From Octopus sinensis (taxonomy: Eukaryota): a stretch of DNA of 64,000 nt. Numbering within the stretch: the stretch's first letter is position 1; every line of letters starts with the position of its first letter. Shown piece by piece: positions 1 to 60,925 of the stretch. A program made the translations under genes and the position numbers. Location of the stretch: assembly GCF_006345805.1 (NCBI RefSeq), contig NC_043000.1:157914001-157978000 (forward strand). Reading direction: 5' to 3'. The notes beneath the pieces were generated by a model that worked only from the letters and a program-made list of their open reading frames with translations, was not told the DNA's origin and ran no database searches.

Positions 1-690
1 AAATTCCACTTCTTCCCACTCTACCAATGTTCAGCGAATACCACAGATGAACATAAATGAACACAGAAAATACTTTCATACAAAAATACAAGCCAATACT
101 TAACGATCTCTAACAGTGTACATACGCAAATTATTATTCGCTCACAAAACTAATATTGCTACTTAACATGATGAATCTACACAGCTAACAACCTAAACTT
201 TAGCCAATGGACTACATACAAACGACTCCTGTCCACTCTTCCACCAGACAGGTTAAATTTGTTGGCGCAAAATATACAGTCACGTGGCACTAACACAAGC
301 CTAACGGGAAACATGCAAATTATGTGTTCATTCTCTACCGACACTTGACAAAACATTCAGAGCATTGATTGTTTAGACATATTCAGTCAACTGTGTCTGC
401 CTTAACTTACGGCGCTGAACATTGTCACTTGATACTAACACACGGACGTAGCGGGGAACCTACAAAACTTTCTAAGACCAGTCATGTGACTATTCTCTAC
501 CAATCAGTCCTATTCAAAGCATATACTAATTGGAGCCATGAACCCCCTATAAACATAGGGTAGGCTTCAAACACTAGTAAGAAGCAAGACAGCTGCGAAT
601 TAAGACACGGCTTTCTATTTCAACTTTTTGAAAATCTGTGTAAACTGTGAAACCGGTTAAAGCTTTAAATATATTAATAAAGAATATTCT
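1..690 (+). mobile_element. Penelope-like retroelement 3' end (C-terminus of GIY-YIG ORF plus 3' UTR), degraded
   Basis: Manual translation gives KFHFFPLYQC... (frame 1), then after a frameshift TENTFIQKYKPILNDL* (stop at 111-113). This matches the typical PLE C-terminal 'E..FI.K(F/Y)KP.LN' ending. A degenerate hammerhead motif follows at 624-662. Confidence 0.6.
624..662 (+). ncRNA. Degenerate minimal hammerhead-like motif in PLE 3' UTR
   Basis: cttt-TTGAAAA-tctgtgtaaactgt-GAAA-ccgg-TT-aaag. Stem I cttt/aaag and palindromic stem III are present; the core is mutated from CUGANGA. Confidence 0.35.
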
Positions 691-813
691 AACTACACAC
701 ACACATATACCCCCACCCCCATACCTCCCCATATATATGTATATATATATATATACACATATATACGATATTTTCAGACTGAGATAAAAATCCAAGGCTG
801 TGAAAGAGTTTCC

Positions 814-1597
814 CATTCTGAGATTTTTTTTACATGTACACATGCTGATATATGACCTACGTTGGACTCCTCATTCGCATAATCACCATACCTGGAGCTT
901 AACTATAGTCTGTCCACAGCACTTACTCAGCATTACTTGACACATTTGGGTTTTATTGACACCATTACCTCTCATAACCTCTCTCTCTCTCTCTCTCTCT
1001 CTCTCTATGTATATATATATATAGTATAGTTAAGCTCCAGGTTCGGTGATTATGCGAATGAGGAGCCCAACGTAGGTCATATATATATATGACCTACGTT
1101 GGGCTCCTCATTCGCATAATCACCGAACCTGGAGCTTAACTATACATATATATATATATATATATATATATATATATATATGTATAGTTAAGCTCCAGGT
1201 TCGGTGATTATGCGAATGAGGAGCCCAACGTAGGTCATATATCAGCATCTGCATATATGAAAAAAAATAACAGAATGAGATAAAAATCCGAGGCTGTGAA
1301 AGATTTCAGAAAAATTATAAATAGAAGGTCTTACAGCTGTTTCCGGGATATTTTATATAACGCTTCATCGGAGACGGTGTGAGAAAATACTTAAGCAACA
1401 GTTATTCTACATAAGATATGAAATAGAGATTGAAGTGGAGGAATGAGAATAGACGTGAGATATGCAGGGATATTTTATCTTCAGTTCCATTATTTAGGCA
1501 GAATGGTATACATATAAGATTCCTGTACGACCTTCTATTTATAAATTTTCTGAAATCTTTCACAGCCTCGGATTATTTTTATCGCATTCTGTTAATT
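814..1597. repeat. Complex fold-back module: four alternating-orientation copies of a ~57-bp unit plus a ~70-bp inverted repeat, interleaved with (TA)n
   Basis: Unit gtatagttaagctccaggttcggtgattatgcgaatgaggagcccaacgtaggtcat at 1024-1080 (+), 1089-1145 (-), 1182-1238 (+) and diverged at ~851-908 (-). Arms 1268-1336 and 1523-1594 are reverse complements. Confidence 0.9.
1328..1375 (-). ncRNA. Minimal type-I hammerhead-like motif (CCGAUGA core, weakened stem II)
   Basis: Minus strand: gtct-CCGATGA-agcgttatataaaatatcccg-GAAA-cagctg-TA-agac. Stem I gtct/agac, palindromic stem III, GUA cleavage triplet. Confidence 0.6.
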
Positions 1598-3649
1598 TCT
1601 ATATATATATATAACTCATCCTGTTAATTTATATATATATATATATATATATATATATTATATATATATATATATGCATATAGATACATGTATATATATA
1701 TTATATATATATTATACACACACACACACACATATATATATATCATATATATATCATATATATATATATATATATATATATCATATATATGCATGTATGT
1801 TTATATGTATATGACTCACTCGAATATAGCATTGCGTAGAAATGTCTGTACATTTTTTGATTTATCTAATTGTAATATTAAATATAAAAAGAAGCAACAA
1901 CTTGTAAGTTAAGATATAAACAGAGTCGACACACAATAAACACAGAAAAGTACTTAAAATTTGCGGTTATTGCTCCAGTCGGGCGTTCACATTGGTGGTT
2001 AACACCAACTAAAAGACCTGAATAACTATCGATTCATCACATTAACAGAATGATACACATTTTATTTGAAGGATTCATTTTAGTGAATAGATTCCAAGCG
2101 AATTACTTGATATATGTTTTACTGACACTCGGTCAGATGAAAAGAAAAGTCAGTCTCAATGACATTTCAGATCCAGACGTACGAAGATAAAAGCAAATGC
2201 TACAAATATCTATTTCGGTTTTCTAGTAGTTAGGTCTAAAGGTCTCTCATTCTCTTCACCACTGCCCTAATGAGCAGAAATATTGATTGCTATTGTTTTT
2301 TAGCCCTAGGAAAGTCCTGAACAAGGAATCCCATTATCAAAAACCATAAAACAGAATATCATTTTTACAAAATGCGTTATCTAATATGCCCATTCTTTTA
2401 AGGTTATAGAGTATGATTTAATGGGATTCTTGCTGCTATTTTTATGCAATTTCACGGATATATATACGGGCTCCCTTTTTCGATTCCGTAAATATTAATT
2501 TCATACATTTATGGCTGAGAAATCTATTTAACTGAATTGACCAACGTAGAACATATTTGTCCGTCTGTACAATGGAGCAGAACATATTTGTCCGTCTAAA
2601 CAAATGAGAAAATGCGAAGGTCACCTCAAGTGGATTTGAAACGAAAAAGCAACAAGTAAAAACAAAAAATAATAAAATAATAAAATTAAAAAAACACAGT
2701 ACAGAATGGCAAACCACTAACTACTGTAACTAGTAATACTATCATTTCTAGTATTTCAGTGCTATCAACTGAATAAAGCCAAATGTTAGTTTGTTGTAGC
2801 AAGAAAAATATCTAACGTTTCGAGCAATTTCTAAAAGGTTATTAGTATAAAGTATGCAGAAGTTCGTGAGCGAAATTTGAGAAGAAGAAGGAGGAGGAGT
2901 AATTGAAATTTGGCCTGGAGGATGAGAAGATGAATAAGGAGTTAAGAAAGGGAAACGGGGAGAGTTAGAAGTGAAGAAGAGCGTGCATTGAAGAAAGAAC
3001 ACCGAACGGAGGAGTTATTTGGGGCTGTAACCGTATCATTGCTGGTGGTGGCCATGGTGTGGATGATACGTGGGTGGTAGTTAGTAGCACAGAGCAAGAC
3101 AAATTGAAAATGTGAAAATGACTAAATAAACATAAAGTTTCGTAAACATATATCCTCACCTTATGAACATATATATAGTTATAGACATACATATACATTG
3201 ATGCATACATAGATACATACATAAATACATACACACACACACACACAAACATATATATATATATATATATGAAACATATAAACATAGGCCTTTATAAAAG
3301 TATAAACACGTCATTCAGTTTGCATTAACAATCTCCAATGAAACACAAATCTCACAATGCAAACAGAAAGATACAATCTCCAAATCACCTACAAAGTCTA
3401 TAATAAACACAAGCACACAAACAGATTCACTGAAATACACACACGTATTTACATACATATACATACACACACACGCATAATATTATATACCGAAACCCAC
3501 CCTCGTGCACATGCATGCACACACAAACATACACTATCGCACGCTCACCAGAATAATAATAATAATATGTTTCCGCTAAACACACAGCTGTTAATATTAA
3601 ATATAAAGAAATACATATAGACGGGAAGTTTAGTAATAGATATATATAC

Positions 3650-59599: not shown

Positions 59600-60385
59600 A
59601 ACATTCCTGCGTACTCACACCCATGGAACTGGTAAGTAACGCTTCAAGCAGCATGGACAACGTTACCAACAGTTACAAAGGCAGCAGCACCACCAAATTT
59701 GTGGCCAGAAATTTCCACTACACCAACAATAACGGAAGCCCTAGAATCACCTAAAGGAACAGCGACACCAGTAACAAGAACAACAACATCAGTTAACGAA
59801 ACAAATATCGGCGGCGGCACCACATCCAATACACAGGCACGAGAATATGTCCGCTCAAATCTACTCCTGTTTAAGCAACGCCGGAACAACCATAAGTCCT
59901 CTTTTATGATATTGCAAAAGCGCAACATCACGCCCCTCACCAGTCACGTATGGCGCGTAAAAGAAGAAGGGACTACATACATAATTAAATGGAGGTTCCC
60001 TGAACAACCATGGGCTTATGCAAACGGGAGCAATCGATGTATGCTTTGCTTGGCTAAGAGGGCAGGAATCCTAAAAAACTCACTCGACCCGGGAATCATT
60101 TTACTCTATAGGGAAGAGGTATTCAGTTAATGCTCTCATGTAAAACGTTTCCTACTTCAAACTGGGAATTCCTTATTCGTTGAAGAGTCCCACAAAAGCT
60201 CCCTCGAATAACCTTCAGCTATTTGAGTCTGGCGAGTCACCTATACCGCTAAGTGGTCTTTGGTGCGAAACCAATGGTAACTTTATGACCGGCCATAACT
60301 GTCAACATCCTAAAAAATACATTATTGTTCTATGCTTTAATGCTTCAGAGTGTACTTCTTTTTCGGATATATGAACAACTGACAA
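59600..60385 (+). mobile_element. Penelope-like retroelement 3' fragment (GIY-YIG endonuclease pseudogene plus 3' UTR ending at (TA)n)
   Basis: ORF 59699-60130: EYVRS..FKQRRNNHKSSF...T.LTSHVW.VKE.G..Y.IKWR...Y.NGSNRCMLCLAK..IL...REEVFS*CSH is the characteristic PLE GIY-YIG C-terminal block. Confidence 0.85.
60225..60283 (+). ncRNA. Hammerhead motif in the PLE 3' UTR (one core substitution)
   Basis: gagt-CTGGCGA-gtcacc(tat)accgct(a)agtggt(cttt)ggtgc-GAAA-cca(a)tgg-TA-actt. Same sense as the PLE ORF; a more decayed TGAAGA...GAAT motif precedes it at ~60176-60222. Confidence 0.7.
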
Positions 60386-60488
60386 TATATATATATATAT
60401 ATATACATCTAAAATAGGATAAAATTTTTCGAAAAAAATTCTATCAATGGCCAGCATATTAAAAAAATACCTTTAAAGGTTAAATTTC

Positions 60489-60925
60489 TAAACAACTTAT
60501 AAAAAAAGGCAAAAGAAATATTCTGATGCCAAATATGCCGAAAGTAGACAAATCTTCAATAACCATATAATTCATCATTATAAGCACGCGTCTCGAAGTA
60601 AGCCGACAGAAATGTCTAATAAATTCCGTTATTATCATATCGGCCCCGATTTCAGAGTTAATTCATAAGAATTTTCTCCTCATCAGCGATAAATACGGTA
60701 AGAAATAAATGAAATACTTACTTATACTCGACGAGGGAAAAATTCTTATGAATTAACTCTGAAATCGGGACCGATATGATAATAACGGAATTTTTTAGAA
60801 ATTTCTGTCGGCTTACTTCGAGACGCGTGCTTATAGTGATGAAGTATATGGTTATTGACGATTTGTCTATTTTCGGCATATTTGGCATCAGAATATTTCT
60901 TTTGCCCTTGTTTATAAGTTGTTTA
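60489..60925. repeat. Large fold-back (~198-bp arms) between (TA)n tracts, with hammerhead remnants at the inner end of each arm
   Basis: 60489-60686 versus 60728-60925. Minus 60638-60691: tatcg-CTGATGA-ggag..aattc(ttat)gaatt..ctct-GAAA-tcggg-GC-cgata. Plus copy 60728-60776 has a TCGACGA core. Confidence 0.9.

Follow-up and report, generated by a model that had tools for sequence, protein, structure and literature searches.

A 64,000-nt window of the Octopus sinensis genome (NC_043000.1, positions 157,914,001 to 157,978,000) carries hammerhead ribozyme motifs in short modules, many of them inverted repeats (fold-backs) lying in (TA)n microsatellites. We find it quite probable that these modules comprise the 3' ends of Penelope-like elements (PLEs) together with one non-coding 478-nt unit, likely written into (TA)n by PLE reverse transcriptase (RT) and GIY-YIG endonuclease from two fixed start sites on the RNA. 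Arms of families B, C, D, F and G run into remnants of PLE RT or GIY-YIG open reading frames (ORFs), bearing out a PLE link proposed earlier from the window sequence; 3' ends fall into two groups in each of the seven families mapped; and one long end is combined with one short end in 123 of the 128 classifiable fold-backs when two sets of loci are joined. The 478-nt unit (family A) has the same two kinds of 3' end, the same TA targets and the same inverted arms as the ORF-bearing families.

The window, from an assembly of 2.72 Gb, is 28-46% GC and microsatellite-dense. The earlier reading of its sequence, hereafter the original prediction, placed 13 hammerhead motifs in it, and we located all 13 on the strands and at the coordinates proposed. 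Genome searches with each window locus, which score only the 40 best candidates, defined eight families, A to H, represented in the window as follows.

450..695, + strand: PLE 3' end of family F, with a U3-A8 variant hammerhead at 624-662
775..1609, unstranded: complex insertion of family C, with several inverted arms and tail palindromes
8426..8641, unstranded: fold-back of a ninth family, without hammerhead, overlooked by the original prediction
8669..8871, unstranded: old, decayed fold-back of family B, both cores mutated (8742-8783, -; 8813-8854, +)
30770..30940, unstranded: decayed fold-back of family E, motifs at 30783-30827 (-) and 30845-30890 (+), outer limits approximate
42202..42656, unstranded: fold-back of family H, a relative of C, with a decayed core at 42416-42490 (-)
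45846..46188, unstranded: fold-back of family D in (TA)n, motifs at 45946-46006 (-) and 46065-46124 (+), long end on the left arm, right arm shorter
51779..51858, - strand: solo short-end stump of family B, 80 nt, inside (TA)n
59792..60160, + strand: broken PLE GIY-YIG endonuclease remnant, part of the family G copy
60212..60383, + strand: PLE 3' end of family G, hammerhead at 60225-60283 with an A6G mutation, long end into (TA)n
60406..60930, unstranded: fold-back of family A, the 478-nt retrozyme-like unit

PLE coding remnants and insertion ends

Judged by sequence, families B, C, D, F and G are 5'-truncated 3' ends of ORF-bearing PLEs, and family H probably is another. Two independent 2.1-kb copies of family D preserve the order RT, GIY-YIG, 3' untranslated region, hammerhead, tail, (TA)n, and ORF remnants lie upstream of two of the four family D loci in an even sample of the genome (60 stretches of 10 kb at even spacing on the 18 largest contigs, 600 kb in all). 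Same-strand remnants of the RT thumb and linker precede family F copies at 11 of 25 loci, and the RT remnant of the window copy lies just outside the window, ~10-250 nt left of its first base. Family G has same-strand remnants upstream at 2 of 25 loci, one of them 59792-60160 itself, which matches the family D endonuclease (tblastn, E 1.6e-15); a homologous stretch at locus L138 gives a Pfam GIY-YIG match (E 0.001). Walking upstream, we found endonuclease remnants at 5 of 30 family B loci and RT or endonuclease remnants at 8 of 30 family C loci, and a GIY-YIG remnant precedes 1 of 25 family H loci; B, C, G and H are tied in this way to an endonuclease remnant. All PLE ORF remnants are broken, and the PLE-linked families have their hammerhead in the terminal repeat, 3' of the ORF. 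The original prediction had described ORF-less units of 75-500 bp that were either extreme PLE truncations or a non-autonomous, retrozyme-like family. The lack of ORFs did not survive for the copies at 60225 and 624, which have an endonuclease and an RT remnant nearby, and both origins apply, truncation in B, C, D, F and G (probably H) and a retrozyme-like unit in A.

Some neighbouring arrangements were noted along the way. Near-identical tandem duplications of PLE 3' ends occur at L125:3545-5601, L333/L334 and L122:8163-9438 (periods ~1,016, 474 and 623 nt), and may have arisen by local duplication or represent additional retrozyme-like units. RNase H and integrase frames resembling those of a long terminal repeat (LTR) retrotransposon adjoin a family C copy at L123:3-1917.

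For counts of ends, pairs and junctions, 36 overlapping or duplicate loci were removed from the homology-picked loci, and a second, independent set of 100 loci was picked by core pattern only. Measured from the start of the core, the short 3' site lies at 67-203 nt and the long, or tail, site at 136-304 nt. At least 6 nt of alternating TA occurs within 20 nt after 287 of 408 short or long ends compared to 6.9% of 5,000 random positions, with family A tandem junctions scored as misses, extending to whole families the TA adjacency predicted from the window. The 5' ends are ragged, ranging from -889 to +196 among the 100 pattern-picked loci, and family B is the extreme, with 38 of 40 pattern-picked loci ending within ~45 nt upstream of the core. 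Arms without a hammerhead are frequent, as are solo arms. We found no enrichment of 5' ends where cleavage is predicted (2 of 25 lie within 2 nt of the site, with 2.5 expected), in agreement with the uncleaved RNA described as substrate in PMC11167929.

The ninth-family fold-back at 8426-8641 has its fold point at the predicted cleavage site of a hammerhead-like motif that its relatives (L070, L122) carry directly 5' of the fold point, a single case beside the general test without enrichment. Further start sites read from piles of ends (-7 in family B; -214 and -12 in family C) were rejected, as they reflect at least in part alignment breaks against a different subfamily.

Long and short arms in fold-backs

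At all four paired loci of the window the two motifs point outward, as predicted. The homology-picked set yielded 117 head-to-head pairs, 88 of them classifiable, and 86 of these join one long and one short end; the pattern-picked set yielded 50 pairs, 40 classifiable and 37 mixed. Because both ends are in use among solo arms, about half of the pairs should be mixed by chance. The short arm, which has no tail, extends further 5' than the long arm in 50 of 86 homology-picked and 22 of 37 pattern-picked mixed pairs (up to ~950 nt). Junctions are distinct in 76 of 78 fold-backs, indicating separate insertion events, and in 46 of 55 cases the two arms of an insertion resemble each other more than they resemble arms from other insertions. 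The family C insertion at 775-1609, with five or six arms that include perfect 158-160 nt tail-only palindromes around (TA)n, exceeds the simple layout of one short and one long arm. The A/G difference seen in family B between short arms and long ones was set aside as search selection, as it occurs only among homology-picked loci (19 of 28 short arms there versus none of 19 elsewhere, window excluded).

Inverted arms might instead be built by self-priming, in which cDNA or antisense RNA doubles back to serve as its own template and the endonuclease trims one end (PMC3846280, PMC8557442). Such an origin accommodates the shared template of the two arms, junction gaps that centre near zero and the symmetry of some junctions at short palindromes, and a one-sided tail would follow from trimming. 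However, a folded-back cDNA would be the tail-bearing, further-reaching arm, and a short arm that extends further 5' cannot be a copy of the long one, so that simple self-priming does not fit. A version that uses antisense RNA or template jumping is unaffected by these arm lengths, and we regard self-priming overall as unlikely. Two coupled primings on one RNA fit the arm lengths, which argues for them.

Under the coupled scheme, PLE RT/GIY-YIG would copy from two fixed RNA sites, one for each nicked DNA strand, and would usually stop early. A protein dimer may nick both strands of the microsatellite, with one uncleaved RNA primed at its short site by one strand and at its long site by the other, and the two aborted cDNAs would then be joined head to head with a small gap or none. 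Family A RNA, as a circle or multimer, may borrow this machinery in trans. Hammerheads of source elements, with their palindromic helix III, would cleave as dimers and would be mere passengers in most dead copies. Whether PLE integration is obligately an asymmetric double priming by a dimer on one uncleaved RNA, with retrozyme family A inserted likewise via both start sites, we judge to be an even call.

Much of this anatomy has published counterparts. Two internal RT start sites, cleavage of both strands, AT-rich targets, a predicted dimer and an uncleaved RNA substrate are described in PMC11167929, and PLE inserts with an inverted 5' copy, a one-sided tail and a bias to TA or microsatellites in PMC8557442 and PMC3846280. 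The insertions analysed here share with those three accounts head-to-head arms, two 3' ends, (TA)n, ragged 5' ends and an intact hammerhead. They differ in tail length (35-154 nt here versus 30-40 nt there) and in the near-obligate use of a one-sided tail, which PMC8557442 and PMC3846280 present as optional or frequent; the arm lengths, moreover, argue against simple cDNA self-priming for the insertion anatomy of those two papers. Among the papers returned by our literature searches, and with Arkhipova 2006 outside that scope, we found no quantification of strict long/short coupling.

The 478-nt unit of family A

Aligned copies of family A define a 478-nt unit whose end runs on into its own start, and locus L029 has three cores at a 478-nt period. 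The unit's own tail stands directly upstream in 28 of 30 rows of the upstream walk, the other two being cut there, and none of the 30 enters an ORF of its own. Among 20 pattern-picked loci all 10 arms that reach beyond -185 wrap, and 6 loci have an arm longer than one unit; tandem arrays exist as well, in which adjacent units are 97-98% alike. The unit's GC content is 31%, its longest ATG ORF has 61 aa, and it folds with a z score of -6.0, helices I and II forming when it is opened at the predicted cleavage site. Across 65 distinct copies, helix I consists of 6 bp, a 2x2 loop and 4 bp (pairing at positions 1-6 92-100%, 7-8 2-3% and 9-12 75-94%). Helix II has 4 bp. The window copy retains an intact canonical-type hammerhead (60632-60692) in its long arm, 60406-60727 (-), while its short arm, 60730-60930 (+), is cut within the core. 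Family A fold-backs are mixed in 19 of 21 homology-picked and 8 of 10 pattern-picked cases.

By the sequence definition of non-LTR retrozymes in PMC7229834, family A is retrozyme-like. As in the metazoan examples given there, it is non-coding, low in GC, tandem and strongly folded as a monomer, with a canonical-type type I hammerhead, and at 478 nt it exceeds the ~220-390 nt of retrozyme examples (PMC7229834; bioRxiv 10.64898/2026.07.22.740005). Unlike the known retrozymes, it occurs mostly as dispersed copies of less than one unit to three units, with PLE-type ends and inverted arms. Contigs of four runs, whose RNA origin is guessed, contain the unit in pieces, one crossing the wrap junction, which is also present in DNA and hence is no sign of expression; among the records found to contain the unit, none is listed as RNA. 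A diverged subfamily at L477:200-800 (74-77% identical) and L231:2454-2853 also forms fold-backs in TA; its helix II is compensated and its helix III palindrome differs.

We considered whether family A is the pseudo-LTR of an autonomous PLE or a derived local minisatellite (the model of bioRxiv 10.64898/2026.07.22.740005). The tandem arrays of closely similar units are what such an origin would give, and only the best-scoring family A copies were examined. However, none of 80 fetched loci (some overlapping) enters a family A ORF, and the sole copy next to an ORF, L188, lies within an unrelated PLE. Wrapped copies are also dispersed, with short and long ends in TA and inverted partners, a pattern that local expansion would not yield, and these origins seem to us improbable, to about the same degree as self-priming. 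Candidates for an autonomous parent were rejected: the endonuclease remnant at L188 belongs to another PLE family and its 19 other copies continue differently, and the diverged copy at L014/L477 is another fold-back, without an ORF. A fixed 5' boundary at -46 was likewise dropped, as only 3 of 36 pattern-picked arm ends fall between -39 and -49.

The idea that all modules form one non-autonomous, fixed-boundary fold-back family, MITE-like or retrozyme-like and moving as a unit, draws on fixed outer ends, on the uniform reach of family B to just upstream of its core and on the 30 of 40 pattern-picked B loci that are fold-backs. It predicts recurring junctions and lengths, whereas junctions are almost all distinct, 5' ends ragged and solo arms common, and five families run into PLE ORF remnants. 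For B, C, D, F and G it is thereby refuted for the most part, and we think it very improbable overall. The original prediction's single system with set module boundaries fails on the same junctions and on the many arms without a hammerhead; of its boundary comparison, ragged 5' ends and distinct junctions speak for truncation, and fixity is retained at the two 3' sites.

Hammerhead motifs, their abundance and PLE biology

The predicted core, C[U/C]GANGA with GAAA, is present in 7 of the 13 window motifs (1328, 30783, 30845, 45946, 46065, 51814 and 60638), while the other six are variant, mutated or cut off: motif 624 has a U3-A8 core (UUGAAAA), the cores at 8742, 8813, 42416 and 60225 are mutated, and motif 60728 is truncated within the core. 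Only three motifs pass a full hammerhead descriptor, the remainder being decayed or variant. A strict descriptor finds two (60632-60692, -, and 51818-51855, -) compared to a mean of 0.035 and a maximum of 1 in 200 local dinucleotide shuffles; a relaxed descriptor that allows bulges and U3-A8 adds the left family D hammerhead (45946-46006, -), giving three compared to 0.05 and a maximum of 1 in 60 shuffles, and the predicted excess over shuffled sequence is thus present. The stump at 51779-51858 carries an intact U4C minimal hammerhead (51814-51858), and the family C motif at 1328-1375 (-) has an intact core and a damaged helix II. Type I hammerheads, with a conserved core and three helices, occur above chance, and pairing is kept despite sequence change.

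Whole-genome searches with exact patterns returned 2,282 matches for family B, 2,189 for C/H-type, 1,554 for D, 106 for A and 42 for F, counts that are lower bounds and not mutually comparable because pattern strictness differs; reversed-pattern controls returned none for each of the five. In 43 C/H-type copies, 20-29 nt separate the core boxes and helix II keeps a mean of 6.4 pairs compared to 1.2 when shuffled. The predicted covariation is borne out by this pairing over variable loops and is thin within family A, where 97.3% of cells pair and both sides change in 2 of 20 pairs, mostly at a CpG site. Relatives of H and G mostly have C[U/C]GA[U/C]GA, with C[U/C]GAUGA prevailing in H, restoring the cores decayed in the window, and relatives of F retain the U3-A8 core. 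Three other copies of family E were found among the best-scoring candidates. In the Rfam scan, the best 150 of 370 rows contained no hammerhead, all being microsatellite-driven miRNA noise or similar. Chance matching in AT-rich, repeat-rich DNA, to which the 10 of 13 descriptor failures, unremarkable monomer folds and lack of a hammerhead among those 150 rows might point, is virtually discounted by the shuffle controls, the empty reversed-pattern searches and the helix II pairing.

The even sample contains 10 descriptor matches compared to 0.5 in 12 shuffles, one of the 10 looking like chance. This sample suggests approximately one intact motif per 60 kb, or about 40,000 genome-wide (Poisson range ~20,000-80,000), and supports the large ribozyme-motif population, in the tens of thousands, that the original prediction foresaw. 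As a genome rate, its one locus per 7 kb overshoots several-fold: hammerhead-covering loci of families A-G number 7 in the 600 kb of the even sample versus 8 in the 64-kb window, a comparison that favours the window because the family references came from it. The window is richer than the genome average.

Seven further hammerhead types appeared in the even sample (L221:6583, L222:3311, L225:9439, L239:9276, L240:8646, L242:8747 and L269:9694), each with a self-complementary helix III; three have the U3-A8 core. Upstream of the L239 motif, at a distance of ~320 nt, is a PLE endonuclease remnant on the same strand. The window also contains inverted repeat pairs at 23033-23282, 31033-32336 and 62889-63809. 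The pair at 31033-32336 is formed by an abundant SINE-like element, which we take to resemble an octopus SINE, and a SINE-like repeat at 53246-53788 comprises three tandem copies with a 184-nt period.

Cervera and de la Pena 2014 (PMC4209133) described type I hammerheads of minimal form in pseudo-LTRs of PLEs that carry an endonuclease, with thousands of solo motifs and with opposite-strand dual motifs 100-700 bp apart ascribed to truncated PLEs. The octopus motifs resemble these in their short helix I, palindromic helix III, core-adjacent bulge, U3-A8 variant and occurrence as solo and dual motifs. They differ in belonging to new families, this genome not being named in the portions of that paper compared, in the unpaired 10.1-11.1 of C/H and the U4C of B and C, and in estimated number (~40,000 intact motifs versus 2,000-9,000 per genome).

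Several observations weigh against the reading favoured here. The genome searches yielded a full-length intact PLE for none of the families and identified no parent of family E, and among the 40 best-scoring candidates per search there was no autonomous partner of family A. The ORF remnants match Pfam GIY-YIG or RVT_1 below curated cut-offs, and several have no match. Five of the 128 classifiable fold-backs break the long/short rule and 39 of 167 pairs are unclassifiable; the old family G shows no greater likeness of arms within an insertion (3 of 7), and elsewhere such likeness could come from later conversion between arms. In vitro, use of the start sites was alike on the two strands (PMC11167929), a finding that by itself gives no reason to expect strict coupling. 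The 10.1-11.1 pair is absent in 41 of 43 C/H copies, whose hammerhead activity is uncertain. None of the 13 window motifs forms a hammerhead three-way junction when folded as a monomer, which is expected of dimeric motifs with a tiny, palindromic helix III and makes the fold test uninformative.

Known PLE biology explains most of what was observed, and the discovery of genomic ribozymes is itself ordinary. The pairing of long with short ends and the asymmetry of arm lengths constrain how inverted ends are built, a question left open in PMC8557442 and PMC11167929. Mobilisation of retrozymes by PLEs has been proposed from co-occurrence and homology (Cervera and de la Pena 2020, PMC7229834; bioRxiv 10.64898/2026.07.22.740005), whereas the evidence here comes from insertion ends, and family A insertions with PLE marks bear on the open proposal of PMC7229834 that animal retrozymes are PLE-mobilised. 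The genome also amounts to a naturally occurring library, with hammerhead variants in the tens of thousands, among them types with U3-A8, with U4C or with 10.1-11.1 unpaired. If it is true, asymmetric double priming of family A would be direct insertion-signature evidence for PLE-mobilised retrozymes in animals.

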